From the IMG/VR virus record IMGVR_UViG_2548876936_000010: a stretch of DNA of 34,655 nucleotides. One strand, written 5' to 3'. Of this stretch, positions 4,882 through 31,048 are shown in pieces. The translations under genes were made by a program, and so were the position numbers. Position 1 is the first letter of the stretch. Every line of letters starts with the position of its first letter. Under the pieces are notes generated by a model. It was given only the letters and a program-made list of their open reading frames with translations, had not been told where the DNA came from and did not search any database. The DNA comes from a virus (taxonomy: Duplodnaviria; Heunggongvirae; Uroviricota; Caudoviricetes).

Positions 4882-5400
4882 TCACAGGCCGATATTGCGG
4901 CGGTGTTGCTCCAGCCGGTCGACGCCGTTCACCTTCTCAATCATGTTGATGGTGTCGATTTCGACCAGCTCCTTACCGTCCATCGTCAGCCGGAAATAGG
5001 TGCAGACCACGGAGATTTTCGACTCGGTGTCTTCTCCCTGTTTGCCCTCGCCGGTGTCGATTTCTTTCTGACGTCCACGCATGACCACCTCGACGGCCAC
5101 CGTTTCGCCGGTATCGTCGCGCTGGTAAGAGCCAGCAAAACGAATCGGCACGGCATCCACGCCGGTTGCGGCGTAAAGCTCCCAGATAACCGAATCCGGG
5201 AAGCCCCCGAGCGACCACTCCATTGACAGCGCATCGTCATCAAGGCCGAGGTCTACCGGTGCGCTGCCGTTCATCCCCGCACCGCGATAGTTTTCAAGCT
5301 TACGGGTCAGTTTTGGCAGCGTGACGGACTTTGCAACGCCCTGATAGCTGTAGCCGTTCAGAAAGACGTTCATTAACTTGAGTTTGCGCGGCATTGCCAT
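4882..5400 (-). CDS. FII: Tail tube protein gpFII (172 aa)
   Basis: 172-aa ORF between FI and E; ATG at 5400; synteny and length as P2 FII. Confidence 0.85.
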   Translation of the reverse strand: MAMPRKLKLMNVFLNGYSYQGVAKSVTLPKLTRKLENYRGAGMNGSAPVDLGLDDDALSMEWSLGGFPDSVIWELYAATGVDAVPIRFAGSYQRDDTGETVAVEVVMRGRQKEIDTGEGKQGEDTESKISVVCTYFRLTMDGKELVEIDTINMIEKVNGVDRLEQHRRNIGL

Positions 5401-5412
5401 CGGTCAGGCTCC

Positions 5413-6603
5413 TTAATTGCTGTTAACCGAAGTGACCAGATTTGCCAGGTATTTATCGGTAATACGCTGGCGCAGGGTCAGGTTTTCGAGAGGAGGCACC
5501 GGTGTATAGTCGTAGTCGATATACAGTTTTCCGGCCTTGAGGGTTTCCGCATCGTTGGATTCTTCGCTGAACCAGCAGGTCGCATCCACGATATAGCCGT
5601 TTGTTTTCAGCTCACGGAATTTGGCATTAATGCCGTCAACGATGTCGCGAATCAGCGTTGCGGTGATGGGCTTATCCACAGCCCACATGTGCGCCTCAGC
5701 CATCGTGTCGGCCAGCACCTGCGCGGTGCGGGTGTAGTTTTCAAAGAGGAACAGCGGGTCATCAGAGCAGGTACGGTTACCCCAGAAGCGGAAACCGTCA
5801 CGGCGAATCAGCGTTGTGACGCCTGACTCGTTAAGCAGGTCAGCATCGGTGCCGGACTCCTGCAAATCCCAGAATACGGACGCGCTGATGCCGGTAACAC
5901 CGTTTACCCCGACGTTGGACAGCGTTTTATGCCAGCCCTGCTCCTGGTCGATTTTAGCGCGCAGACCCAGCGCACGGGCGGTGGCATACGCGGTGGCGGT
6001 GGTACTGGTGACCGTATCCCATGCGAGGAAATCCGGCCAGATGACCATCAGCTCACGCTGGCTGAAATTCTGGCGGTAGGCTTTCACCTCGGAAATGGTC
6101 TTACAGCCCCATGCGCTGATATATCCGAAAGCGCGCAGCTTCTGACAGACGGATGCCAGTGCAACAGCCACCTCTTTGGTATCCAGTCCCGGCACACCGA
6201 GAATACGCGGTTTAACACCGGTTACCGACTCCGCCGCCAGCAGGGCTTTTAGTCCGGTGTACTGACCGTTTTCGTCGGTGGTGCCGATGATATTGGAAAC
6301 GGTCTGCGCGAGTTTCGTTTCCTCGTCATCACCGGTGCCGTCTTCCACGCGCACGACAACGGTGACCGGTTTTGACTGGTCAGCGATGGCCTGCAACGAT
6401 GCCGCCAGCGTGCCTTTTTTACCGGCCTTTGCAATTGCGCTTTGCACATTGGTAATCAGCACCGGTTTATTGAGGGGGAAGGTTTCCGCATCCGCATCGC
6501 TGGCCGTGCAGACCATGCCGACAATGGCAGTGGATACGGTGGAAATGACGCGGGTGCCGTCGTTAATCTCCAGCACCTGCACGCCATGATGATAGTCACT
6601 CAT
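5413..6603 (-). CDS. FI: Contractile tail sheath protein gpFI (396 aa)
   Basis: 396-aa ORF, ATG at 6603, first gene of the FI-FII-E-T-U-D block. Confidence 0.9.
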   Translation of the reverse strand: MSDYHHGVQVLEINDGTRVISTVSTAIVGMVCTASDADAETFPLNKPVLITNVQSAIAKAGKKGTLAASLQAIADQSKPVTVVVRVEDGTGDDEETKLAQTVSNIIGTTDENGQYTGLKALLAAESVTGVKPRILGVPGLDTKEVAVALASVCQKLRAFGYISAWGCKTISEVKAYRQNFSQRELMVIWPDFLAWDTVTSTTATAYATARALGLRAKIDQEQGWHKTLSNVGVNGVTGISASVFWDLQESGTDADLLNESGVTTLIRRDGFRFWGNRTCSDDPLFLFENYTRTAQVLADTMAEAHMWAVDKPITATLIRDIVDGINAKFRELKTNGYIVDATCWFSEESNDAETLKAGKLYIDYDYTPVPPLENLTLRQRITDKYLANLVTSVNSN

Positions 6604-6698
6604 CCGTTTAACTCCGTGGTTAATGGGTGCAACTATTTTCTGTTGTGCAGAGCATAAGACGCTATTTGACCTGGCTGGTCAGTGGATGAAACAACAGA

Positions 6699-6727
6699 TA
6701 AAGAAAAGGCGGGCAATTCGCCCGCCT
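6699..6727 (-). terminator. Candidate intrinsic terminator (8-bp GC stem aggcgggc/gcccgcct, 5-nt loop, T-rich tail on - strand)
   Basis: Inverted repeat 6707..6714 / 6720..6727; - strand continues tttctttatc; lies between the cargo island and the FI start. Confidence 0.45.
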
Positions 6728-6786
6728 GTCCTGATTTGTACTCACTCATTTTCCGCCTGACAATTTACATAGCCCAAATGCTATCA

Positions 6787-6802
6787 AATCTGACAGTCTG
6801 CT
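6787..6802. repeat. Left copy of 16-bp perfect inverted repeat aatctgacagtctgct bracketing the FI-G cargo island
   Basis: Exact reverse complement of 9220..9235; a related direct copy at 9092..9116. Confidence 0.8.
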
Positions 6803-6933
6803 TTGAGCGAAAAGTGGACATTAGAGTTACAAAAGCAAGTTTAAATCATCCAAAATATTACAATGTCCTTATCTATCTGATATCGTTATGATAAAAAGCT
6901 CCTGAATATAATCGATAGTAGGTGGTTATTTCC

Positions 6934-7311
6934 ATGAAATCAATTTTAGAGGTTTTTACTCAAGGAAATACTAAAGAAAAACTGGCTGTTATCGCCGATC
7001 TCACAACCATTGCGGGAATATCGATTGCAACTATTATTGCTGGTTTGTTAACCCTAGTTGCAAAAACAGATAAACTAGATGTTGGAAATCTGTTTGGAGT
7101 TGTCATAATATCTCTGCTCGGATTGGCTGGTGTTTGCTGTTTTGTGGCCTTATTTATTTGGGTTATAACCCAAATGTCTAAACCATGGGGAACACCTCGG
7201 GGGGTTCAGCCCTTAGTTAAGTGTGCTATTTCCCTTATCTTTATCTGTATGTTTTTGCTGGCTGTCTTTACATTTTATGAGTTTATTTCTTCGATGAGCA
7301 TACGCTATTGA
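6934..7311 (+). CDS. Small hydrophobic membrane protein (125 aa, about 3-4 predicted TM helices), function unknown
   Basis: ATG at 6934 preceded by aggtgg; long hydrophobic stretches (IAGISIATIIAGLLTLVA, VVIISLLGLAGVCCFVALFIWVI, ISLIFICMFLLAVFTF); AT-rich relative to flanking phage genes. Confidence 0.6.
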   Translation: MKSILEVFTQGNTKEKLAVIADLTTIAGISIATIIAGLLTLVAKTDKLDVGNLFGVVIISLLGLAGVCCFVALFIWVITQMSKPWGTPRGVQPLVKCAISLIFICMFLLAVFTFYEFISSMSIRY

Positions 7312-7333
7312 ATATAAAATCAGCCCCCATAAC

Positions 7334-7918
7334 TTAAAAGAGACCTTCTATATCGACTTCAATGCCCAAATAACGGACTGTGCTTTCCAGTTTCTTATGG
7401 CCCAACAGAAGTTGGATCACCCGGAGACTCTTGGTTTTCTTGTAGATTAAGTAAGGTTTTGTTCTTCTCATGGAATGTGTGCTGTACAGCGAATCTTCGA
7501 GACCAAGCTTTTCTACCCACCCATGAAAAATTCGGTTGTATTGCCGGGTTGATATATGGTGGTTAGTTCCGACCCGAGAGCGGAACAGGAAGCCTTTACT
7601 ATGCCAGTTACCGAGCTTTATCAATGCAGTAACCGCTTCCCTTGTCCCTTTGGTTATCTCAAATTGGACAGGGCTGCCGGTTTTCTGTTGCAACACCGTT
7701 GCTCTGCTTGAGACAGAACTGCCATATGCAGCATCTGATACTTTGAGTTTGACCAAATCACAGCCCCGTAGCTTAGTGTCCAAAGCCATGTTGAACAGAG
7801 CTAGATCGCGTGTTTTACCTTCCAACTCAAGTCTAATCCGGATCCCCCAGATATGAGATATCTGAAGTGGCCTTTTTTGACCGATGGTACGGTCTTTATT
7901 CCACGGTGACGTTTTCAT
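7334..7918 (-). CDS. Small stand-alone tyrosine recombinase (about 194 aa, catalytic domain only)
   Basis: ATG at 7918 preceded by AGGAGA; candidate catalytic residues present: R in KLRGCDL, K in QQKTGSPV, HSMRRT (HxxR), LLGHKKLESTVRYLG (H and Y); no N-terminal arm/core-binding domain. Confidence 0.7.
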   Translation of the reverse strand: MKTSPWNKDRTIGQKRPLQISHIWGIRIRLELEGKTRDLALFNMALDTKLRGCDLVKLKVSDAAYGSSVSSRATVLQQKTGSPVQFEITKGTREAVTALIKLGNWHSKGFLFRSRVGTNHHISTRQYNRIFHGWVEKLGLEDSLYSTHSMRRTKPYLIYKKTKSLRVIQLLLGHKKLESTVRYLGIEVDIEGLF

Positions 7919-8024
7919 ATTCAAATCTCCTGCAATGTGGGAGATTTGAGTATGGTTGTCTCTCAAGAGCGAAAATAAGTCAACTATTACTAGTTGTTGC
8001 GCATGTACGTATTCTGTCAATTAA

Positions 8025-8867
8025 TTATTGACAATCATCAATTCTGGAATGATCAAAATCATCATATCGAATTATAGTCTGGTTGACTGTATCTATTGTT
8101 GGTGTCATTTCTGTTATAATATCCTGATAACCTAAAGAGTTAAATACATTTACTAAGGCCTCACACCGAAGGGCCGTAGCAATTACAAAATTATAAATTG
8201 CCAGCCGTTTATTTTCTTGTTTAACTGCAAGAATGAATTCGATAGCAGTATTTTCATCACTTTGGATTGCATTATATAGAGATACTATATTTACCATATC
8301 ATCAGAGAATGTATGTATTGAATCACAAAGGGGAACGTAATGGGCATGATAGTGTGTTTCCCAGCCAATTAATTCAAAAAGTTTTCTGGTTCCTGGATAT
8401 TCAGGTGTATTTGGCCACAATCTATTAAATAGATCAGTTAGTTCTTTTCCCATGCGAATCCTTTCATTTGCTGCTGGATTAGTCATTCCTTTGGATTTTA
8501 AACACTCCAGCCACCGTTTTCCATTACTATGAACTAATTTCTTACTAGCCTTGAGTAATGCTTGTGCATTTTCGCCATCATCTATTGCTATATAAAATTG
8601 ATTGGCAGCCTGTTCTATTATAACCCTAGCTAATACTTCCGATGCTGAAAAGGCTCCTATATTCAAAGAAGAGATAGCCTGATTACTAAGTTCATTCAGT
8701 ACATTAAAGTACTGTAAGACCATCAATTTTTGTTCCACACCCTTTAGGTTGTCTATTTTATTTTTATGCTCCTCAAATTTTGCATGGATATATTTATTTA
8801 TCGCGGCTATTTTTTTTACATCTTCGTCAAGATCAAACGGGCAACGTCCAAACAATTCTTTTTTCAT
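8025..8867 (-). CDS. Hypothetical protein (280 aa), AT-rich cargo gene, function unknown
   Basis: ATG at 8867 preceded by AGGAGA with 6-nt spacer; ends 4 nt upstream of the recombinase gene; no motif I can recognise. Confidence 0.65.
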   Translation of the reverse strand: MKKELFGRCPFDLDEDVKKIAAINKYIHAKFEEHKNKIDNLKGVEQKLMVLQYFNVLNELSNQAISSLNIGAFSASEVLARVIIEQAANQFYIAIDDGENAQALLKASKKLVHSNGKRWLECLKSKGMTNPAANERIRMGKELTDLFNRLWPNTPEYPGTRKLFELIGWETHYHAHYVPLCDSIHTFSDDMVNIVSLYNAIQSDENTAIEFILAVKQENKRLAIYNFVIATALRCEALVNVFNSLGYQDIITEMTPTIDTVNQTIIRYDDFDHSRIDDCQ

Positions 8868-8905
8868 ATATTTCTCCTGTTGTACAAGCTTCCATAAGTT
8901 GGCAG

Positions 8906-8911
8906 ATTATA
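8906..8911 (-). promoter_or_regulatory. Candidate -10 hexamer TATAAT about 38 nt upstream of the 280-aa gene start
   Basis: - strand reads TATAAT at 8911..8906; no good -35 found, so weakly supported. Confidence 0.25.
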
Positions 8912-9091
8912 CACTGAAGATTACCTATAAATAGCTGTGCGGGATAGCAGATCAGTGCAAGAAGTACAACCAAGTGAATGTGCGTATTCAGATACCTGGC
9001 CTAACGTTCGCGATAGCCGTCCCCTGCACGAAGCCATATATTAGATGTATTAGCTCAGACCTTATCTGACAGGTTGAGTAGGTAGAATCTA

Positions 9092-9116
9092 ATCAAAGCT
9101 GACAGTCTGGTTTGGA
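9092..9116. repeat. Direct-orientation degenerate copy (atcaaaGctgacagtctgGtttgG) of the left repeat
   Basis: About 22 of 25 positions match 6783..6807; a further partial copy atctgacag at 9064..9072. Confidence 0.6.
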
Positions 9117-9211
9117 CTGTGAGTTCAACCGATGGATGCAACACACAGCGATCTACGGACATTACTAGCATAGCTGTGTATTAATCATCGGGAAGCAGGT
9201 CAGTCCGCTCC

Positions 9212-9253
9212 TAGCACAGAGCAGACTGTCAGATTAGGCTTTACTCTGTGCTA
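9212..9253. repeat. 10-bp perfect inverted repeat (tagcacagag / ctctgtgcta) enclosing the right 16-bp repeat copy (9220..9235)
   Basis: Arms at 9212..9221 and 9244..9253; 9220..9235 agcagactgtcagatt is the exact reverse complement of 6787..6802. Confidence 0.75.
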
Positions 9254-9287
9254 TAGATACGTTAGCTCACTCCAGAGATCATACAAC

Positions 9288-9815
9288 TTATTGCGGCATT
9301 TCCGGCCATTCAGGATTTGCAGGATCCACACGGCTGACCAGAACACTGTAGCGTTCCCATGCTTCCAGTCGGCTACGCTCCTCATCTGTTGCCATATTCA
9401 GTCTGACAGAGCGTTCCAGTGGCTGAATGATAGTTTCAGCTTCGGAACGCAAAGCTGACTTCTGTAATTCCGCCAGTTGCAGCTGTTCGTCTGCCGTATA
9501 AATCCGCTTAATCACGGCACCATCCTTAAACATCCATTTACCTGAGTCATCAGCACGTCGGTTGGCGGTAATATCAGGAACCTCGACAACGCTAAAACCT
9601 TCAGGGTTGAGCGTTGAAGCATCTCTGGTGATGCCGACAATTATATTATTCTCATCGTAAACAATCTTTATCGTGTCTTCCTGAAAATTACTTACTTCCT
9701 CATACCAGTTTTTTCCCTCTTCGGACCATAACCAGATAACATCAAAATTTTTTGTCAGTTGATATTGGGCAACAGTTTTTGGATTACCCGCAGTAATATT
9801 TTTTAAATGCTGCAT
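9288..9815 (-). CDS. G: Tail fibre assembly protein gpG (175 aa)
   Basis: 175-aa ORF immediately downstream of H; ATG at 9815; length as P2 G. Confidence 0.8.
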
Positions 9816-9818
9816 AAA

Positions 9819-11792
9819 TTACACCTGTGCGACGTTATACCATGTGCCATTGATGTATTTTTGTATTGGTCTGAATACTGCGGGGTCATCACCATCGACT
9901 TCACCGACAATACCAAGCCCGGTAATTACGTGCCCTGCTTTCTCATACATCACCCCTTTCTGCATGGTCTGGACAACACGTGTGCCAAGTCTGACATCTC
10001 TCACATAGCGGGAATCAAAGTTACCGTAATCCGAGGGATTAACACGCCCCGTAATATTTATGGTTTTATTACTTTGAACGCTTCCGGAGACAAAGCGCAT
10101 AACATGGACGCTATTAGCATAAACATCCAGATTACCATCACCATTTTGTTTAAAGCCCGTGTCATTATCACCCAAAACAATCGAATTACCGCCAAGAGCA
10201 CTGGATGTTCCTATACCCAGAGCACCATTCAATTGACCACCAGATAATGATAACGCCCCAACATCAGCAGCAGTCGGTTTAATGTACGAACTGTAAATTA
10301 CATATACAGTTCCATCTGTCAGGCCTGTTGGTTTATTCGCTGTATAAGTTGGTGATGTATGAATCGTTACGCTGGCGTTACTGGTATAATCCCACTGAAT
10401 ATTAACACCTGTGGCGTAATTACCTATTTCAACATAAACATCATAGGTATCACCGGATGTATTCACCCATGCAAAATTAGTAAATCCAACCGATGTCCGT
10501 CGCCATAACGCACCAGTAAGACCTTTTGGATTTCCATTTCCCGCACGAAGAACAAGTTCAGATATACCAGCCTGCATAGGGGAGTTAACATTATATCCGG
10601 CACCACCAATCAGGCTTATGTAAACCACGGAACTGGCCTGGGGCATGGTTACAGTTGCCAGCCTGAACCATCCTGTACCACCACTAAAAGACATGGTTGT
10701 TGAATTTGTTGCTCCAATATTGCGCAGGAATAATCTTTTATCAGGAATATCCGCACCGTTCTGATCTTTCTGAAGACGTTTTTCAGCATTGTCATAGGCA
10801 GACTTCACCGCTTTTGGTGTTGCGGCCAGTGTTTCAGAATCACTGTTGGTGGCGCTACTGAGCTGAACAAGCCCTTTTCGCGCTGTGGTGGCATCCTGTG
10901 CAGTGTATTTCCCGTTAGCAAGGTCATACGCGACCTTTACCGCCTTTGGCGTTGCGGCCAGCGTTTCAGAATCGCTGTTGGTGGCGCTACTGAGCTGAAC
11001 AAGACCTTTTCGCGCTGTGGTGGCGTCCTGTGCAGTGTATTTCCCGTTAGCAAGGTCATACGCGGCCTTTACCGCTTTTGGTGTTGCGGCGAGCGTTTCA
11101 GACGTGCTGTTGGTGGCACTACTGAGTTGGACAAGACCTTTTCGCGCTGTGGTGGCATCCTGCGCAGTATATTTCCCGTTAGCAAGGTCATACGCGGCCT
11201 TTACCGCTTTCGGCGTTGCAGCCAGTGTTTCAGACGCGCTGTTGGTTGCACTGCTTAACTGAGTAAAACCTTTTGCGGTCAGCGAGGCGTCCGGGTGACG
11301 TCGTGACTGTTCATGCTCTGCAATTTTGTCATCAACGTAATCCTGCGTTGCCATCACCGTTGTGGTGTCAATGGTCAGCTCCACTGAGGCCACACTGCTG
11401 ACGATGATGACCATGCGGCAGGTCTGCGAACGCCCTGAGCCTTCGGCAAGAGCGGGTTTATAACTTTCAGCCATGTTCGCCACGGCAATTAGCGTTCCCG
11501 CATCATCGTACAGGCCAAGCTCACGCATCCAGAAACCGCCCACCTCCGGCGGAATAACCAGCTCTGCGATAATATAATTACTGTTTCGTTTGTCCTGGCT
11601 GATTTTGTTCAGCGCATGTCGCCAGACTTCGCGGATAAGCCCGGTCTGTCCGGCATCCGGGACAGGCAATTTACCACCGCCATCCCCGACGGCCATCGTG
11701 GTAATGTTGACCTTCCGCCCTCCCGGTGCGGTTGCCGCTGCCAGCTTTGCTGCACCGGCAGTGGTGATAACGGTTTTGAATTTTGTGCTCAT
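9819..11792 (-). CDS. H: Tail fibre protein gpH (657 aa) with internal 44-aa tandem repeats
   Basis: 657-aa ORF; N-terminus MSTKFKTVITTAGAAKLAAATAP...; repeat KGLVQLSSATNS.SETLAATPKAVKAAYDLANGKYTAQDATTAR; Gly/Ser/Thr-rich C-terminal half. Confidence 0.9.
   Translation of the reverse strand: MSTKFKTVITTAGAAKLAAATAPGGRKVNITTMAVGDGGGKLPVPDAGQTGLIREVWRHALNKISQDKRNSNYIIAELVIPPEVGGFWMRELGLYDDAGTLIAVANMAESYKPALAEGSGRSQTCRMVIIVSSVASVELTIDTTTVMATQDYVDDKIAEHEQSRRHPDASLTAKGFTQLSSATNSASETLAATPKAVKAAYDLANGKYTAQDATTARKGLVQLSSATNSTSETLAATPKAVKAAYDLANGKYTAQDATTARKGLVQLSSATNSDSETLAATPKAVKVAYDLANGKYTAQDATTARKGLVQLSSATNSDSETLAATPKAVKSAYDNAEKRLQKDQNGADIPDKRLFLRNIGATNSTTMSFSGGTGWFRLATVTMPQASSVVYISLIGGAGYNVNSPMQAGISELVLRAGNGNPKGLTGALWRRTSVGFTNFAWVNTSGDTYDVYVEIGNYATGVNIQWDYTSNASVTIHTSPTYTANKPTGLTDGTVYVIYSSYIKPTAADVGALSLSGGQLNGALGIGTSSALGGNSIVLGDNDTGFKQNGDGNLDVYANSVHVMRFVSGSVQSNKTINITGRVNPSDYGNFDSRYVRDVRLGTRVVQTMQKGVMYEKAGHVITGLGIVGEVDGDDPAVFRPIQKYINGTWYNVAQV
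10791..11276. repeat. About 3.7 in-frame tandem copies of a 132-bp unit inside tail fibre gene H
   Basis: Unit starts ccgc(t/c)tttgg at 10807, 10939, 11071, 11203 (period 132 bp), near-identical copies. Confidence 0.85.
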
Positions 11793-14301: not shown

Positions 14302-15087
14302 ATGGTCAGCTATAATGTGACTAATGTGTGGGGGCTAATCGTTTTTTTCCTTTGTAGCTTTGCAGTATTAGCATTTTTTAGCTTTGGTAAAAGTAACCTT
14401 ATGAGGCTTATTGCACATTATTTCAATTTTGGATATTCAGACAAAAAATTAAAAAGACTTGACCGCGAGTGGCGCGACATTCAACTATTTAAAATAATTA
14501 ACGGAATCAATGTATCAGGCATTGAAAATGTGAGAATGATACAGCAGGGACTGATTGATGGAAAACTAAAAACATCGTATTTTTTCCTTACTCGCATCTG
14601 GGGTGACATAACAAAACCACCACACATAATTAAAACAATAATTGTAATTCTGGCTAGTATTTTTTACATTCTTCTCGCATGTTACATACACAACGAACAA
14701 TCCGTTATAGTAAGGGATGCCATAGGCATACCATATAAAAACATGATGTACTATGTTTATAGTGACAAAGTTCTTTTATCCTTCAAAAATAAAGCAGTTG
14801 AATTTAATAAAACTTATAGCCTTGCCGATTGCAAGAGACTGCAAAACGTATTTATAAAAGACACACTTCCTGAGATCGCCTGCAATAAGCTCTTACAGCT
14901 AAACGAGGAGGACTCCGAATGGTTAAGTCAGGAGATTAAAGATAATAACAGTCACAAAAAAGCATTATTAATACTATCCCTCGTCTATTTCACTTCAGGT
15001 CTGGTTATATTCCTGTCATATACAAAATTCTTTTACGCCAATAAGAAGGTTTTAGAATACAAAGCATCAAATAAAAATCACTCATAA
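14302..15087 (+). CDS. AT-rich membrane protein (261 aa, three predicted TM helices), opposite strand to flanking late genes; moron
   Basis: ATG at 14302 with AGGAGA 5 nt upstream; TM segments VWGLIVFFLCSFAVLAFFSF, IIKTIIVILASIFYILLACYI, ALLILSLVYFTSGLVIFLSYT; marked AT-richness. Confidence 0.65.
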   Translation: MVSYNVTNVWGLIVFFLCSFAVLAFFSFGKSNLMRLIAHYFNFGYSDKKLKRLDREWRDIQLFKIINGINVSGIENVRMIQQGLIDGKLKTSYFFLTRIWGDITKPPHIIKTIIVILASIFYILLACYIHNEQSVIVRDAIGIPYKNMMYYVYSDKVLLSFKNKAVEFNKTYSLADCKRLQNVFIKDTLPEIACNKLLQLNEEDSEWLSQEIKDNNSHKKALLILSLVYFTSGLVIFLSYTKFFYANKKVLEYKASNKNHS

Positions 15088-24366: not shown

Positions 24367-25074
24367 CTATATATACTTCCTTTTTACTCTACTTAATTCT
24401 ATCACTGATGAGGAGTGACAAAATGACAAATTAATAGTATCGATATAATCCAAAATTTGACTCTCAACCTCAATAAAAATATTTTTGGGCCCATTACTAA
24501 TCGATATACCGATTTCATCCAAAACAGCCATCATTTTTCTCTGATGAGTTTTATATTTATAGTCTTTATTTTCCTCTGTAATATGTGCATTGGCTTCCTC
24601 AATAACACATTTGATTCTAGATATTATTTCTAGATAATCTCTCGAAACAGATATATCACCGCCTTGCGCTTCAGGGAACATAACCCTATACCATCTAAAA
24701 AAATTAACTTTCTCTGGATAGATGCTACTTCTTTTAGTTAACTCAGCACTTGCAAATTCTCTAAACATCGTCAGATGACTAGTGTAATTACTATTATTAT
24801 TATTTTTAACTCCAGCGTTATATGTCATCAAAGCAATCATAACACCAAAAACGGTAACAAAAGTTGTTATAAGCCATCCAAACGCCTGAAAATACATTAC
24901 TATACCAGATGTTTTTTCCGCAAAAAATTTTAAGCACTGGCTATCGAAGCATATATCACGCTCATATAGCTTTTCATTCTGAATAGTTTCAAAAAGAGAA
25001 ATTAGCGAAAAAATCAAAAAAAGAGCTGACGACACACCGACAATATATTTGAGAAGTCTAATATTTGCATTCAT
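24367..25074 (-). CDS. Two-TM membrane protein (235 aa) translationally coupled to the RT; candidate effector
   Basis: ATG at 25074 overlaps the RT stop (ATGA, 25071..25074); TM1 YIVGVSSALFLIFSLISLF, TM2 GIVMYFQAFGWLITTFVTVFGVMIALM, then about 150-aa soluble domain; AT-rich. Confidence 0.7.
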   Translation of the reverse strand: MNANIRLLKYIVGVSSALFLIFSLISLFETIQNEKLYERDICFDSQCLKFFAEKTSGIVMYFQAFGWLITTFVTVFGVMIALMTYNAGVKNNNNSNYTSHLTMFREFASAELTKRSSIYPEKVNFFRWYRVMFPEAQGGDISVSRDYLEIISRIKCVIEEANAHITEENKDYKYKTHQRKMMAVLDEIGISISNGPKNIFIEVESQILDYIDTINLSFCHSSSVIELSRVKRKYI

Positions 25075-26261
25075 AATGGTTTTAAAGATGCCAATCTAGA
25101 TTTAAAACACTCCAGTTTTTCTTTAAATGATTCAGAGCGAGTAAGAATAATCATCTTATATCTCGTCAAATCATATTTTCTTTTATACCAATGTTTATTT
25201 TGATTACCTTTCGAATACGACAACTCTAAACTTTTTATAGCTGCATCAATCACAGCAACATCTCTTTTAGATGGCATCGGTTTTATTGCCTGCAACTGTT
25301 TCTTGAATGATTCATATTTTTCATGCCCAACACGGCCAAGCTTATTCACTCTCCCCATACATCTATTGAATTCTTTTCTGTATGCAACACTTGTTTTTGT
25401 GTTATTTTTTGCCGCCAGTAATTTCAAATTATGTATAGATGCCCTGATTCTTTTGACTTCATCGGATGGTAGTCGAGGTGAGTCATAGTCAACTCTTAAA
25501 CCATGTACTTTTATAGGTTCAGATGAACAGTGAAATATTTTAGTTTTGTGCTTATTTATCGGCAAGTCATGCTCAGAAAGCATCCTCTCTATATGGCTTT
25601 GCATTTGAGAAAAATCATAATTACTTATTTTAGATGACACGGTAATATCATCTACCAAACGCGTATAAACAAGTCCTTTCCTCTGCGCACGTCTTACCAC
25701 ATCCCCTTCAACAGCGAATAAACACAAAGTTGCTATATAGCTTGATGTTAAGGCCCCCTGTACGACAAAATCATCCTTAGTACATATATCCACCAAGTAT
25801 TCAAGAGCCTCATCCTTAATATGCAATATCTCCTCAAACACGCTCCTAACCAGATCTCTATGGATATTATCGAAAAAATTACTTATATCCACCTTGAGAA
25901 CTGTTTTTGCTCCACAATGAGCCTTTGCACATGAAACATAGTCACGTTTGACATTAGAATTTAAAACATCATTTTTACTGGGAACTGAACCAAACAAAAA
26001 TGAAGGAAAAACAACCAATTCCTTAAAGATACGTTTATTAATTCTACTCTGTAATAATCTCATTTTAGGATGCAGGGAGTAGACAATCCGTTTGCTTCCG
26101 TCAATTTTGGGAATTTCTTTTAGAGTATATTTCTCATCTAATGATAATTCTGCAATAGCTTTAAGCTCTTCAACAGAAATCGATAAAGCCTTTGACAACT
26201 TTTCAAGTGTTGTGATAGGAGCATTGGATTTGCTGTATGGTTTAAATTTATCCATAAACAT
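25071..26261 (-). CDS. Reverse transcriptase, retron-like (about 397 aa; start ambiguous among ATGs at 26297, 26261, 26255)
   Basis: RT motifs in the translation: IPKIDGSKRIV, LLQSRINKRI, CAKAH...LKVDISNFFDNI, QGALTSSYIATLCL, YTRLVDDITV (YxDD-type), LPINKHKTKI, IKVHGLRV; basic C-terminal extension. Confidence 0.8.
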   Translation of the reverse strand: MFMDKFKPYSKSNAPITTLEKLSKALSISVEELKAIAELSLDEKYTLKEIPKIDGSKRIVYSLHPKMRLLQSRINKRIFKELVVFPSFLFGSVPSKNDVLNSNVKRDYVSCAKAHCGAKTVLKVDISNFFDNIHRDLVRSVFEEILHIKDEALEYLVDICTKDDFVVQGALTSSYIATLCLFAVEGDVVRRAQRKGLVYTRLVDDITVSSKISNYDFSQMQSHIERMLSEHDLPINKHKTKIFHCSSEPIKVHGLRVDYDSPRLPSDEVKRIRASIHNLKLLAAKNNTKTSVAYRKEFNRCMGRVNKLGRVGHEKYESFKKQLQAIKPMPSKRDVAVIDAAIKSLELSYSKGNQNKHWYKRKYDLTRYKMIILTRSESFKEKLECFKSRLASLKPL

Positions 26262-26512
26262 ACCATTCAAATTCAAAGTTACGTACGGTCTTCCCATACT
26301 CAAGGGTGGAACAGCAGAGATGCTTACATCAACAATTGTCAGCAACAGCCTCTGCTATCTTTCGACCGTACGTAATGTCGTCGGCTACGGCACCATCGTA
26401 GTTGACGACGGTGGGGCCTCGCTGATAGGTCCATAGTGGACGCTTTTTTGTAAAAGCAAAAACTGACAATTTAATGTTGTTGACTGCCGCATACCAAGCG
26501 AATCGCTGGTGC
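26262..26512 (-). ncRNA. Candidate structured non-coding leader of the RT (possible retron msr/msd-like RNA)
   Basis: 12-bp perfect inverted repeat ttacgtacggtc (26279..26290) / gaccgtacgtaa (26364..26375) with nested 7-bp repeat agcagag/ctctgct; adjacent hairpin 26377..26409; no ORF. Confidence 0.4.
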
Positions 26513-26519
26513 GCTAAGA

Positions 26520-26548
26520 ATAATGCAACAAAAAAATAAGAATTTCAA
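26520..26548 (-). promoter_or_regulatory. Candidate sigma70-type promoter for the RT module (-35 TTGAAA, 17-nt spacer, -10 CATTAT)
   Basis: - strand ggTTGAAAttcttatttttttgttgCATTATtc; -35 at 26548..26543, -10 at 26525..26520; between cos and the structured leader. Confidence 0.3.
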
Positions 26549-26586
26549 CCGGGTAACTGCAAGCCAGCGACATCGTTTAGCGCGCA

Positions 26587-26605
26587 GTGCTTTCCCCGCC
26601 TCGCC
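26587..26605 (-). other. cos: cos cohesive-end site (19 nt), - strand reads GGCGAGGCGGGGAAAGCAC
   Basis: + strand gtgctttccccgcctcgcc is the reverse complement of the 19-nt cohesive end I recall for P2. Confidence 0.65.
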
Positions 26606-26810
26606 CGCCCGCTACATGGGGCGGTTTTAATGCAGTTGCATGAACACGCCGGAGGCGTGCCAGCACTGGCGGCTCTCACACGTGACGAGAAAGGAAAACG
26701 CATGCGATTCAATGCAGTAATGCATGCAGGGCTAAAAATGTCAGAAAATACGGTAAAAACGCATAAAAAACCGGCATTCAGGTTACCGGTTTGAGTCAGC
26801 TTCATTGTGG

Positions 26811-26912
26811 TTACTTGTCGCGCAATGCGCCAATAATACTGGTAAGGCAACAAGTGGCAACAATCAGCAAAAAAACCGTTGTCCACGGATTCTCATAAAC
26901 GAGAGATAACAT
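26811..26912 (-). CDS. Possible small hydrophobic peptide (33 aa, MLSLVYENPWTTVFLLIVATCCLTSIIGALRDK)
   Basis: ATG at 26912 to TAA at 26813..26811, translated by hand; single TM-like segment; weak RBS; below the ORF-track size cut-off. Confidence 0.25.
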   Translation of the reverse strand: MLSLVYENPWTTVFLLIVATCCLTSIIGALRDK

Positions 26913-27312: not shown

Positions 27313-28317
27313 ATGTCAAAAGAAAACACACCAATGGAACCAAGCATAAATATAAAGGCAGACTTCACTGAGATATTAAATTCATCGCCAAAGGGCGTTA
27401 AGTATATATTCAATATTCTCTTCGGAAAAAAACACGCAGAGGCCGAGAGAAGGATTAGGCTATCGAACGCTCAAGATTATGCAGATATGAAAAAGATCAT
27501 ATCTGGAGAAGCAACATATGATAATGAGAGGAACCAAATAACACCTTCTAACCAAGACATTAAGTCATTAATTGTTAGTGCATTGCAGGATGAGGAAATT
27601 AAAAATCTTATAGGCTGCATCAGAAGCGCCTCAGAATACATTAAAGATGATACTGATAACGATGGTGGTCCATCCCAAGACTTTATTAACAGATGGCGAA
27701 GCGATGCGAAACTAATCAGTGAACAGTCTATCCAGTACGTTTGGGGGCGAATTCTAGCGGAAGAAATAAACACACCTCAAACTGTAAGCGTAAGAACCCT
27801 TGATGTAATAAAAAACCTATCAAAAGAAGAGGCTGAATATTTCTCAGAGGTACTTGACTTTATATTTTACGATTCTTATTTGATTGATAATGGAGATACC
27901 AAGAATCCATTCATCTCACCAGAAAAAGGTCATAAATTGAGAGATGCAGGATTAATAGTTACTTTTACTCCTGGAATGTATTTCTCCGAGACATGGGATA
28001 CACAACATTTTGTTCTCAGTGGAGCCACCATACCAAAAGTATTCTACATCAGCAGTTCTGATAAGTATTACTTTATCGATGCAGGCAAAATAACTGACGA
28101 CCCTAAAATTCTGGTATGGAAGTTAACAAATGCTGGCAAAGAACTATATAAAATTCTAAAGAAAGATCATAAAACCAAAGAAGAATCAGTAAAAAAAATT
28201 ATTGACTGGATATTAAACAGCACTAAAGCTTCTGAGTTTTACCATGGGGATATTATTAAACATTCAGACAATAGCCTGTCAGTTGAGAACTTACTGACTA
28301 TAAGCAGAAATAGATAG
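27313..28317 (+). CDS. Hypothetical protein (334 aa), AT-rich cargo at the position P2 uses for tin/old
   Basis: ATG at 27313 with ggag upstream; no Walker A or other motif I can recognise; convergent with A; followed by a hairpin. Confidence 0.65.
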   Translation: MSKENTPMEPSINIKADFTEILNSSPKGVKYIFNILFGKKHAEAERRIRLSNAQDYADMKKIISGEATYDNERNQITPSNQDIKSLIVSALQDEEIKNLIGCIRSASEYIKDDTDNDGGPSQDFINRWRSDAKLISEQSIQYVWGRILAEEINTPQTVSVRTLDVIKNLSKEEAEYFSEVLDFIFYDSYLIDNGDTKNPFISPEKGHKLRDAGLIVTFTPGMYFSETWDTQHFVLSGATIPKVFYISSSDKYYFIDAGKITDDPKILVWKLTNAGKELYKILKKDHKTKEESVKKIIDWILNSTKASEFYHGDIIKHSDNSLSVENLLTISRNR

Positions 28318-28762: not shown

Positions 28763-31048
28763 TTAGCTCCACTCCGTTTCTGTTGAATACCCCGGCCACT
28801 CATCAGCGACCGCATAACTGAATTTTTTCTCGCCATATATCACCGTTGCACCTCGCGTCAGCGCCTCAAGCTCCCATCGCTGCGGTCTGATACCGTTCTG
28901 AGCAAGGTCAACGCGGATAGGGATGATTTGCAATCGTTCAGACCTGGTCAGTCTGGCAGATGGTGCAATTTCATGCGGTTTTAACGGGCTTCCGTTTCTT
29001 TGCTGACGATTTGATGTTCTCAGGCCGTGTTTTAATGCGCCCCTGAGCGCCCTCACGACCTCCGGGTCATTCCATTCGATAACACCGTCATCAACCAGAT
29101 TAAGCACTGCTGAGGCGTGCTCAGAAGGTGTGGGAGCCGGTAACGAAATATCACCACCGGTGAGCTTTCCACAGTTATTGACAGGACTCCGAGGCGCGGC
29201 GATGCCGCTTTTTAAAGTCAAAGGCTCAACGACCGGAACTTTCGGCACAATGCGCCAGTCCGTCGTTCTGGTGATATGAATATGACGCGCGCCGAGATGC
29301 GGCGCGTAAATGCCGACCACTCTCTCGACTTCTTCCTCGTACTCGTTAACGTCATCCGACGGGCTACGGGCAACCCTGACAGTCTGACAATCGCGCGGGA
29401 CATTTGCCCCACCCTGCGCGCTGATATACAACGCAAAATCACCACTGTCTGCGGCAGCGCGAGCAGCCTCGACGCGTTCGTCAAACTCATCAGCAATACT
29501 GACGCCGCGAGGCAATTTGCGTAGTTCACGGTAAGCCCCCATTGTCGGCAGGCCAACCGTTTTAAATTGCGGAATTCGCCACGTTGACGCCCATGCGGTA
29601 ACAGCCGCAGCAGTATCTTTCAGCGGCCTGCCGGTATCATTATCGAGCTGACCATCCAGTGCATAGCCATCGATGTTTTTTGAGATGTATTTTGCGATAT
29701 ACCCCGCAGCACCGCCCCGGTTAAGATGTTTTGCCTGAAAACGGTTTCGCGCGGCTCCTCTTTCGTCGCCATCCTCTTTGAGCGCATAGCGACGCATGAT
29801 TTCGATAATCTGGTTACGCTGGCGTGGATTACAAAAAAGCATCATATGCCAGTGCGGCGTTCCGTCGTGGTGTGGCTCGACGACACGCAAACCGTAGACC
29901 TGTAAATCATTATCCTTGAATGCCGTGCGCATCAGGCTCCAGATATGGCAGAGATAACGCTGCGCATCCTTTGGATTAAATGCCTCATCGTTCCAGCCGT
30001 GATTTAGCTGGACGGTTTTACTTTCGCCTTTTCCGACCTGACGTGTCGGGTGATACTTTGACGGCGCGGTAAGCGTGATAAACATCCCCACATCACCCTC
30101 TGCGGCGGCGTAACGCTCAATACCGGCAATGGTGTTCATCAGCTCCATCCGGCGAATTTCAGGATTAGAAATACTGCCCATCACCTTACTGATAAGGTCG
30201 ATGCGTTCGCCGGTTTCCCTGTTTTCAAGGTCACACGATTTAAGAAATTCCAGATTTGCCTGGCGGCGTGCACGCACATCACGAATGGCATGTTTACTGG
30301 CATAAGGTGAACGGTCTTTATTGACCTCCCCGACAGCAATCAGTAACGCCTCATGCCAGCGCATACGCTGGCCTTTAAGCTGACTAATCCACCACTCATC
30401 GTTAAACAGGCGGGCAATGGCAGAATATGCCTGCCTCGTGGTCATCTGTCCTTTACGGTATTTTTTCCAGTAGAGCGGGGAAATATTGAAAGCACGTGCA
30501 GCGCCAGCAACATGACCATAGAGGTGAGCCTGCGCCTCATCCGTAAACAGCGATTCTTTTTCGCCATGCGCATCCACCCAGGCATCGCAGAGTTCCTCAT
30601 ACATCATGAAAAGCTGCGATGAGATACGGGCGGCAAACTTTTTCAGCTCCTTATCATTCATCCCCGGCAGACGCGCATAATGGTCACGCTCTGCCAGAAA
30701 CAGCAACGACGCGTCGGTGTTCATTTCATGGCGCTGATTCACGCGCTCAATGCGCGGCCATAAACGACGCTGAAAAGTGGATGTGAGGAAATAAAACCCG
30801 TGCACCGGGCTTTTATTGCGCCGGATGTAGTCATAGCGTGAAGTAAACAGCGAGCGCAAAAAGTAAGGCAGGCGGTTAATCGTGGATAAAACACCTTGCA
30901 CCTGACGCATCTCGTCACGTGTAAGGGGTCTTTCGCGCCCGACGGCCTCGCGTGGCGCGTTCCATGCATAAGCACCGGTAAACGCCTTACCGGTGCCTGC
31001 AGCAAATGCTGACGGAGGGACAAAACGCCCGGAGGCTTTAACGGCCAT
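28763..31048 (-). CDS. A: Rolling-circle replication initiator gpA (761 aa from ATG at 31048)
   Basis: ORF 28763..31090; contains HUH-type motif (PHWHMMLF) and tyrosine motif GYIAKYISK; internal start MAVKASGRF... Confidence 0.85.
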   Translation of the reverse strand: MAVKASGRFVPPSAFAAGTGKAFTGAYAWNAPREAVGRERPLTRDEMRQVQGVLSTINRLPYFLRSLFTSRYDYIRRNKSPVHGFYFLTSTFQRRLWPRIERVNQRHEMNTDASLLFLAERDHYARLPGMNDKELKKFAARISSQLFMMYEELCDAWVDAHGEKESLFTDEAQAHLYGHVAGAARAFNISPLYWKKYRKGQMTTRQAYSAIARLFNDEWWISQLKGQRMRWHEALLIAVGEVNKDRSPYASKHAIRDVRARRQANLEFLKSCDLENRETGERIDLISKVMGSISNPEIRRMELMNTIAGIERYAAAEGDVGMFITLTAPSKYHPTRQVGKGESKTVQLNHGWNDEAFNPKDAQRYLCHIWSLMRTAFKDNDLQVYGLRVVEPHHDGTPHWHMMLFCNPRQRNQIIEIMRRYALKEDGDERGAARNRFQAKHLNRGGAAGYIAKYISKNIDGYALDGQLDNDTGRPLKDTAAAVTAWASTWRIPQFKTVGLPTMGAYRELRKLPRGVSIADEFDERVEAARAAADSGDFALYISAQGGANVPRDCQTVRVARSPSDDVNEYEEEVERVVGIYAPHLGARHIHITRTTDWRIVPKVPVVEPLTLKSGIAAPRSPVNNCGKLTGGDISLPAPTPSEHASAVLNLVDDGVIEWNDPEVVRALRGALKHGLRTSNRQQRNGSPLKPHEIAPSARLTRSERLQIIPIRVDLAQNGIRPQRWELEALTRGATVIYGEKKFSYAVADEWPGYSTETEWS

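Follow-up and report, generated by a model that had tools for sequence, protein, structure and literature searches.

Hot spots in P2-like prophages are a major source of new anti-phage systems. One of them, the Z/fun ('TO') region of P2, lies between the tail sheath gene FI and the tail-fibre assembly gene G and is annotated with inverted repeats on its left and right (Nilsson, Karlsson & Haggard-Ljungquist, 2004, Mol Biol Evol 21:1; GenBank AJ512683, AJ512685). As cited in PMC8987985, Nilsson et al. (2004) proposed inverted repeats around fun and site-specific exchange, and according to a 2026 preprint on thousands of P2 and P4 elements, the recombination process behind rapid cargo swapping is still to be elucidated. 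Anti-phage cassettes are also stored by chromosomal integrons (bioRxiv 10.1101/2024.07.02.601686). Here we analyse the interval between FI and G in a 34,655-nucleotide (nt) stretch of viral DNA (IMG/VR record IMGVR_UViG_2548876936_000010), which is a P2-like Escherichia coli prophage; 'the window' denotes this whole stretch. The interval carries genes for a membrane protein with three transmembrane (TM) segments, a DUF5677 protein and a small tyrosine recombinase. We tentatively propose, as a reading that may well not hold in full, that recombinases of this family and 24-bp palindromic cores make up an uncharacterised integron-like cassette-exchange system of Enterobacterales, in which 66-bp junctions split the P2 Z/fun locus, chromosomal islands and a lambdoid hot spot into exchangeable cassettes of one gene each, often an anti-phage gene, and that the DUF5677 and three-TM proteins are single-gene defence candidates.

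The two genes flanking the interval were identified with Pfam models, and FI is 96-100% identical at the amino acid (aa) level to its counterparts in P2-like contigs. The genes are:

5413-6603, minus strand: FI, tail sheath gene (Pfam Phage_sheath_1, Phage_sheath_1C, Gp18_domIII_N); conserved P2 backbone and left flank of the hot spot
6934-7311, plus strand: 125-aa membrane protein gene; open reading frame (ORF) with three hydrophobic segments by hydropathy, full-length match to phrog_4155
7334-7918, minus strand: 194-aa tyrosine recombinase gene, catalytic domain only (PF00589 Phage_integrase, 64.4 bits)
8025-8867, minus strand: 280-aa DUF5677 protein gene (PF18928, 40.1 bits against a gathering score of 27.1; phrog_4167)
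9288-9815, minus strand: G, tail-fibre assembly gene (Pfam Caudo_TAP); right flank of the hot spot

A preliminary description of this DNA had reported three ORFs of 125 (plus), 280 (minus) and 194 aa (minus) between FI and G, and all are present. The AGGAGA ribosome-binding sites (RBSs) it had noted for the two minus-strand genes lie 6-7 nt before the ATG in both cases, and the AT-richness is borne out by a G+C content (GC) of 0.33-0.46 within the interval against 0.55-0.60 in the flanks (0.355, 0.459 and 0.340 for the three parts; 0.563 for FI). The gap of 4 nt given there between the 280-aa gene and the recombinase gene is in reality 106 nt (8024 down to 7919). A gap of 4 nt would hold only for a 228-aa reading of the recombinase from an unsupported TTG at 8020, which we rejected; the homologues all begin at the ATG (alignment A1). 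RefSeq annotates the identical three genes between FI and G of E. coli S88, and the complete interval occurs in 36 of 5,426 complete E. coli genomes at 99.7-99.9% identity, including S88, the APEC O1/O2 lineage and ATCC 11775. Non-coding RNAs and tRNAs were sought in the interval and none was found, and a scan for sigma-70 promoters returned no more sites than in shuffled sequence.

When the interval is compared with P2, W-phi, L-413C and the Z-region records of P2-EC58/EC67, the match to them is limited to ~210 nt at its start and ~85 nt at its end. The left and right inverted repeats annotated in the P2-EC58/EC67 records coincide with the boundaries of the cargo in the window, so that the position between FI and G and the bounding repeats are identical to those of the P2 Z/fun region as its GenBank entries give it, while the window differs in having cargo without Z/fun homology and a recombinase gene. 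The interval is therefore the known P2 Z/fun hot spot, as the preliminary description had supposed in calling it a variable cargo position. More than 20 distinct cassettes, 0.7-3 kb in size, were counted in the P2-like contigs sampled, indicating extensive cargo turnover; a lack of turnover between related prophages, raised earlier as grounds for doubt, is not what they show. The preliminary description had left it open whether the 280-aa protein is a Z/fun homologue. A diverged homologue, which would make the island a variant of the P2 T5-exclusion locus, would fit the identical location and the similar length (280 against 299 aa). However, BLASTP against the 299-aa P2 ORF at the locus gave a best E of 6.7, which is no similarity, the protein belongs to Pfam DUF5677 and all 34 of its profile matches are of DUF5677 type. 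We accord this explanation next to no probability.

The boundaries of the cargo are formed by 24-bp palindromes, here termed cores, of the form GTCCGCTC-N8-GAGCGGAC with two types of spacer, type 2 (TGAGCGAA) and type 1 (CTGGCACA). In the window they are found at:

6796-6819: left boundary core, type 2, degenerate with four arm mismatches, GTCTGCTT-TGAGCGAA-AAGTGGAC (inverted repeat I1, site scan)
7958-7981, minus strand: type-2 core remnant before the recombinase gene, at the end of the DUF5677 cassette, GACTTATT-TTCGCTCT-TGAGAGAC (flank comparison)
9203-9226: right boundary core, type 1, GTCCGCTC-CTAGCACA-GAGCAGAC, 62 nt downstream of the G stop codon (site scans)

The left core lies inside the left inverted repeat (6787-6819); P2 homology stops at 6810-6821 and the cargo starts at about 6820. 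The palindrome of the right core extends over 9198-9231. In intact units the counterpart of the remnant at 7958-7981 reads GTCCACTC-CTCGCTCA-TAAGGGAC. The published 'inverted repeats' of the Z region are thus the two spacer types of one palindromic core, mutually inverted.

The exact core was found in 63 IMG/VR contigs, where it mostly adjoins the G gene of P2. Where cassettes abut, the junction consists of a type-1 core, 18 nt (CTTyAGCTCAGt...) and a type-2 core, 66 bp in all, and among the fetched loci 67 of 85 segments between sites run with type-2 to type-1 polarity. Members of 10 named Enterobacterales genera have this 66-bp junction motif, and in Citrobacter youngae as many as five junctions follow one another. 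In strain ATCC 29220 of that species, the five junctions lie within 4.7 kb of a chromosomal array (locus L165, 2208-6931), the densest seen, and neither a P2 gene nor a recombinase was found in the stretch fetched. The motif was also matched in contigs of metagenome-assembled genomes labelled Opitutae and Eubacteriales (L174-L176, L182); no full core was found in them, and these matches are likely to be due to chance or to binning contamination.

Arrays of this kind extend beyond P2-like prophages. In L030, a lambdoid hot spot of the Qin type, a type-2 core is accompanied by a gene, a recombinase unit and two single-gene cassettes, each ended by a core. A search with this 6.2-kb array gave matches in 4,446 of the 5,426 complete E. 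coli genomes; in most of the matches listed, only the two flanks match, and they stop at the outer type-2 and type-1 cores. Between such flanks, again among the matches listed, the genes vary, with annotations as SIR2, AIPR, KwaB-like, SMEK plus methyltransferase, DUF4209, QueH and, in one match, DUF5677. One of the cassettes of L030 and its 700-bp recombinase unit were each also found alone elsewhere, with ends at cores, and a chromosomal island (L031) shows the same pattern.

We next consider the recombinase. Its membership of the PF00589 superfamily is clear (the score compares with a cut-off of 27.1 and the match covers profile positions 21-166 of 172), and the motifs KLRGCDL, QQKTG, HSMRR, LLGH and TVRYL are invariant in the family and all kept in the window copy (alignment A1). 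From general knowledge of the superfamily, we take these to supply the catalytic Arg-I, Lys, His-x-x-Arg, His/Trp and the nucleophile Tyr. The family is abundant, with more than 8,000 clusters and occurrences in 848 of the 5,426 complete E. coli genomes, and relatives of 75-95% identity stand beside unrelated genes in prophages, islands and integrative and conjugative elements (ICEs) across many genera. Isolated phage genomes lack the family, their best match having 58% identity, and a sequence search of the PDB gave no match. The IntKX subgroup of Smyshlyaev et al. was considered as its class and rejected; IntKX enzymes are ICE integrases.

Recombinase genes from seven unrelated contexts were aligned together with their flanks, and conservation was found to begin and end at fixed points. 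Upstream of every intact gene there is a type-2 core, followed directly by a hairpin in which the Shine-Dalgarno sequence and the AUG are base-paired; downstream come the stop codon, a hairpin with a 9-bp stem and TGTGCCAG-AAGCGGAC, after which the DNA is specific to each context. These fixed limits indicate that the recombinase gene sits at the centre of a junction, between a type-2 and a type-1 core with the polarity common to the arrays, and not in the position of cargo. The 17-mer CTGTGCCAGAAGCGGAC from the recombinase flank has a single match in the window, with two mismatches (0.10 expected), and it falls on the right cargo boundary. Loci with a recombinase at least 80% identical to that of the window have 1.4-2.1 cores per 10 kb; ~167 kb of control loci have none, and shuffled sequences have 0.004 per 10 kb.

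More distant homologues (59-64% identity) are informative here. Their genes lie between inverted copies of another sequence, the lineage-specific CGCTAACCGGCCAGAAGCGGA, in an unchanged layout, and retain the order of stop codon, hairpin and a conserved GCCAGAAGCGGA motif. This co-variation of flank and protein is the strongest argument that the recombinase recognises the sequences beside it. One viral contig (L109) carries two diverged small recombinases, 59-61% identical to that of the window, 2 kb apart and on opposite strands (2326-2880, minus; 5057-5647, plus), each with its lineage-specific flanking motif.

The hairpin at the 5' end of the gene is a conserved feature of the family:

7916-7954, minus strand: mRNA hairpin over the Shine-Dalgarno sequence and AUG of the recombinase gene (inverted repeat I5)

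It has a predicted stability of -17.4 kcal/mol (z = -5.7) and 15 pairs, 3 of which show compensatory changes. Hairpins stand at the equivalent position in L030, L007, L012, L095, L101 and L106, and analogous ones are present in the homologues of 59-64% identity. The hairpin resembles the fold-back structures that control the translation of transposases, and by analogy it would keep read-through transcripts from expressing the recombinase.

It could be argued that the palindromes are terminators or hot spots of homologous or illegitimate recombination resembling repetitive extragenic palindromic (REP) elements, with the recombinase as unrelated cargo or a remnant. The cores are indeed GC-rich stem-loops at the ends of genes, the majority of arrays have no recombinase, breakpoints fall outside the spacer and the left junction in the window is illegitimate (see below). 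Against this, the spacer is conserved in addition to the stem, it comes in two types with fixed polarity, and no T-run follows the cores; moreover, the recombinase is always at the junction position and never in a cargo position, and the inverted flanks vary with the recombinase lineage while the layout stays constant. We therefore regard terminators or REP-like hot spots as an unlikely account of the cores.

The recombinase copy in the window departs from this family pattern at its 3' end, where it meets the membrane cassette:

6820-7352: membrane cassette, 3' end missing in the window
7334-7352: left half and loop of the hairpin terminator of the membrane cassette, intact form TTAAAAGAGACCT-TCTATA-AGGTCTCTTTTAA (junction alignment of the window, L027, L028 and L029)

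The preliminary description treated the interval as one three-gene island. The membrane gene and the pair of DUF5677 and recombinase genes each occur separately, so that the hot spot is composite and not a three-gene unit. The membrane protein belongs to a small family, in which similar proteins of ~120-130 aa form 32 representative clusters. In strain Ec1119 the membrane gene is the sole gene between FI and G, in strain SaT040 (L028) it shares the interval with a DUF6650 gene, and in contig L039 it is one cassette within an array of four; in the latter two it is one core-separated unit among others, and in SaT040 the left core is duplicated, with one copy on each side of the extra DUF6650 cassette. 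The membrane segment was found in 64 complete E. coli genomes, and in 27 the membrane gene is present without the other two genes. The 325-nt tail of the cassette that is missing from the window is present in 27 genomes, none of which is a listed carrier of the island. Within this intact tail (L027 3540-3864, L028 3541-3863) there is a possible minus-strand ORF of ~50 aa convergent with the membrane gene, the two meeting across a common hairpin terminator; a hypothetical protein is annotated there in one genome.

The remainder of the cargo, a module from 7352 to 9203 comprising the recombinase gene, the DUF5677 gene and 336 nt upstream, is common to lambdoid prophages at 89% nt identity, where it lies between the replication gene P and an AAA-ATPase/HNH pair and no membrane gene accompanies it. 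Its right end falls at the identical nucleotide, 9203, in the P2 and lambdoid contexts. The lambdoid recombinase is a frameshifted pseudogene with a 73-nt deletion that keeps the canonical C-terminus, and its DUF5677 gene is intact. The adjoining pair encodes a 457-aa AAA_15/AAA_21 ATPase and a 211-aa HNH endonuclease, with hokD beyond (L029 2557-4552; L018-L022), and looks like an uncharacterised two-gene defence candidate.

Could the three genes nevertheless form one functional system, for example a defence system with the recombinase as component or switch, co-transcribed and co-selected? They are adjacent in the 36 genomes at more than 99.7% identity, the DUF5677 and recombinase genes travel together in lambdoid prophages, and both have good RBSs. 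The membrane gene, however, has the opposite orientation and, in those 27 genomes, is found with neither of its two neighbours, and the GC of the three parts differs as given above. In addition, DUF5677 homologues occur with no recombinase beside them, recombinase homologues of 80-95% identity have unrelated neighbours, and in the lambdoid copies the recombinase is a pseudogene beside an intact DUF5677 gene. A single three-gene system is thus quite improbable.

Alignment of the window with L027, L028 and L029 places the junction of the two parts between 7352 and 7353, within the loop of the terminator hairpin of the membrane cassette. The terminator bases 7334-7352 now supply the last five codons of the recombinase (IEGLF) and its stop codon. 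Microhomology at the junction is at most 2 nt, and the junction is therefore illegitimate. Through it, the membrane cassette lost its tail, and the recombinase lost its type-1 site and the last 11 codons of its gene.

As a result, the window copy ends in IEVD-IEGLF, IEGLF replacing the family-invariant C-terminal tail DDALEISESIEV (DDALE(I/M)(S/A)E..E(V/I)), which follows the catalytic Tyr and is kept in 106 homologues as well as in those at 59-64% identity. Of the features by which we define the subfamily of ~200-aa junction recombinases, the window copy thus lacks the invariant tail, and it also lacks the flanking arrangement of type-2 core upstream and hairpin with type-1 half core downstream: its upstream core is the degenerate remnant at 7958-7981, and in place of the downstream hairpin and core stands the terminator of the membrane cassette. 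It further carries four substitutions at columns at least 97% conserved among 107 sequences; with the loss of the tail, a deviation as large is seen in only 1 of the 106 homologues. On account of the lost tail, the lost 3' hairpin and core and these substitutions, the window recombinase is probably an inactive, immobilised and decaying copy, a fossil, and the DUF5677 cassette would now be fixed in place.

These features also bear on the possibility that the recombinase is an active Fim-like invertase flipping the segment between the inverted boundary cores, which would make expression of the cargo phase-variable. FimB/FimE invertases are likewise ~200 aa, consist of the catalytic domain only and act on short inverted repeats, the boundary cores are inverted, and a tyrosine-type invertase model (NCBIfam NF007371) matches the protein weakly (E = 5e-5). 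That match scores 22.9 bits against a cut-off of 222. The island has one orientation, with a single collinear match, in all 25 listed of the 36 genomes that carry it, and no orientation variant and no invertible promoter element was seen among them. The left core is degenerate, with its four mismatches, the recombinase has neither the invariant tail nor an adjacent site, and the polarity of cassettes in arrays is uniform. We consider phase variation by inversion very improbable.

Turning to the cargo, the 280-aa protein is not wholly unknown, as the preliminary description had it, because it carries the Pfam DUF5677 domain, which is matched as well by 29 of 29 aligned relatives; DUF5677 is a family without an assigned function. 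The protein is predicted to be soluble and all-alpha with 10 helices (AlphaFold2 model, predicted local distance difference test score 90.6). The Proteobacterial subfamily to which it belongs, of ~270-285 aa, exceeds the 166-position Pfam model and has invariant motifs of its own, EQxAN and PLCDSxHxxSD (alignments A2 and A3), and the conservation of these polar residues suggests a defined active or binding site. No relative was found in a sequence search of the PDB, nor any sequence or structure relative of known function, and no NCBIfam model matches either this protein or the membrane protein. Relatives with 37-53% identity occur without a recombinase in moron positions of prophages and in defence-like neighbourhoods. 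A role as accessory factor of the recombinase was considered and rejected because DUF5677 and the recombinase are each widespread without the other.

Further features of the DUF5677 cassette are:

8868-9202, minus strand: upstream region of the cassette (sequence; repeats D1 and I2)
9099-9123: internal palindrome, CTGACAGTC-TGGTTTG-GACTGTGAG, resembling the outer arms of the core site

The DUF5677 gene probably has a promoter of its own, since 27 nt before its RBS, at 8906-8911, there is a perfect TATAAT that would serve as the -10 element; the promoter scan did not call it because the -35 is weak. The motif CTGACAGTCTG has four exact copies in the window (five sites if one mismatch is allowed) against 0.3 expected; the copy at 29376, inside the coding region of gpA, was judged a chance match.

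What the cargo does can be approached from the company it keeps. Domains of defence type according to PADLOC were found in 6 of 10 other cassette proteins (TIR plus TM, protease, PDC-S64, SIR2-like, AbiV and AbiGi), and DUF5677 homologues adjoin Lamassu-like, nSTAND/SLATT and GAPS4/PRTase genes as well as occupying moron positions. Judging from these neighbouring cassettes, a weaker line of reasoning, the cargo genes are most likely anti-phage or exclusion genes. The phage-exclusion role suggested in the preliminary description is plausible by context.

Taken together, these observations lead to the following explanation, which as a whole we consider fairly probable. The hot spot between FI and G would be a cassette array in which every cassette has a type-2 core at one end and a type-1 core at the other, and in the window the array would consist of the membrane cassette and the DUF5677 cassette with a recombinase of the ~200-aa family between them. 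An intact recombinase unit would run from a type-2 core through the RBS-sequestering hairpin, the gene and the 3' hairpin to a type-1 half core; at ordinary junctions, 18 nt would take the place of the recombinase, giving a 66-bp unit of two inverted simple sites that would resemble an integron attC in its architecture, or else a recombinase unit reduced to miniature form. The recombinase family would recognise the cores and move cassettes from one array to another, in P2-like and lambdoid prophages as well as in chromosomal islands. The pair of DUF5677 and recombinase genes may have arrived in the P2 hot spot by way of the recombinase or by recombination within a shared type-1 core, and the illegitimate left junction would then have left the recombinase stranded and decaying. 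The two cargo genes, by a weaker argument, may be single-gene accessory functions of the prophage with promoters of their own, expressed in the lysogen.

Several points weigh against the cassette-exchange proposal. Activity of the recombinase on the cores is putative and deduced from sequence comparison, and a recombinase is nearby in only 4 of the 63 viral contigs selected by site and 2 of 29 genomic junction loci. Canonical tyrosine recombinases exchange strands in the spacer; here the homology breakpoints lie at the outer edge of the 8-bp arm (between CA and GTCCGC) and not in the 8-bp spacer. A site scan recognised no cores around the lambdoid copy of the module, and an intermediate with the intact membrane cassette, intact recombinase and DUF5677 was not found in the 5,426 complete E. 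coli genomes. The GC-rich palindromes could, in addition, double as transcription terminators. As to a defensive role of the cargo, none of the three proteins belongs to a known anti-phage system in PADLOC-DB v2.0.0, which covers systems described up to 2023 and gave no family at E <= 0.1 for any of them. A structure search with the DUF5677 model returned generic helical-bundle matches only and no informative fold, and in a 2025 preprint, the one such test found, a distant Gram-positive DUF5677 gene tried in Enterococcus faecalis was not among the five that protected.

Other parts of the window also hold cargo and repeats. The P2 backbone between FI and the hot spot has one further element, which falls within the segment homologous to P2:

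6707-6727, minus strand: terminator-like hairpin (scan: 9 pairs followed by a T-run)

In the other P2 hot spot, between the portal and replication genes, a 424-aa reverse transcriptase (PADLOC RT_IV, E = 1e-176) and a 235-aa protein (2TM_IV, E = 4e-85) make up a pair that resembles a type IV retron (24367-26345, minus strand), which is a defence system of known kind. This same hot spot, which is cos-proximal, has further cargo, a 334-aa DUF2806 protein (27313-28317, plus strand) and a 113-aa ORF (26545-26886, minus strand), neither of which has a PADLOC match. Among the tail and baseplate genes, an ORF of 261 aa on the other strand (14302-15087, plus) takes the position of P2 orf30; neither Pfam nor PADLOC gives a match for it, and it may be a further moron. 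Lastly, the tail-fibre protein (9819-11792, minus strand) contains four tandem repeats of ~44 aa (KGLVQLSSATNS.SETLAATPKAVKAAYDLANGKYTAQDATTAR) at ~10800-11300, which also yield a series of repeated short ORFs in other frames.

If the cassette-exchange proposal is true, the recombinase and cores explain how defence hot spots of prophages turn over their cargo so rapidly, a mechanism missing so far, the boundaries of cassettes can be called from sequence alone, permitting a precise harvest of single-gene defence candidates, and a shared pool of cassettes links unrelated prophage families. The window itself is more modest, with two uncharacterised accessory genes and a probably dead recombinase; interest centres on the recombinase and its sites, the cargo genes being unknowns of an ordinary sort at an established hot spot. 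Relative to the 2004 work, as conveyed by the citing review and the GenBank annotations, the inverted repeats are known; the present analysis derived the 24-bp core with its two types of spacer and the junctions of 66 bp, and connected them to a recombinase family. The recombinase named as candidate may be new.

Among described systems, integrons offer the closest layout. They share with the arrays described here mostly single-gene, promoter-proximal units, separators of ~66 bp composed of two inverted simple sites, a tyrosine recombinase gene embedded in the array and many cassettes with defence-type domains. In contrast to integron integrases, the window protein has no N-terminal core-binding domain, and it scores only 18.2 bits with TIGR02249 (cut-off 265) and 18.3 bits with NF011946 (cut-off 435). 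The core sequence is unlike GTTRRRY, genes take either orientation relative to the polarity of the sites, and the recombinase gene lies inside a junction rather than beside attI with a Pc promoter. The cassette system is thus integron-like in layout, yet by none of the tests applied does it include IntI or attC. The pdif modules of Acinetobacter plasmids are a second point of comparison: their cargo is bounded by paired inverted XerC/XerD sites in many contexts, and they rely on host XerC/D acting at 28-bp dif-like sites, with no recombinase of their own. To our knowledge, the cores found here bear no resemblance to dif. The system presumably stands nearest to integrons and the Acinetobacter pdif modules, with a recombinase of its own.

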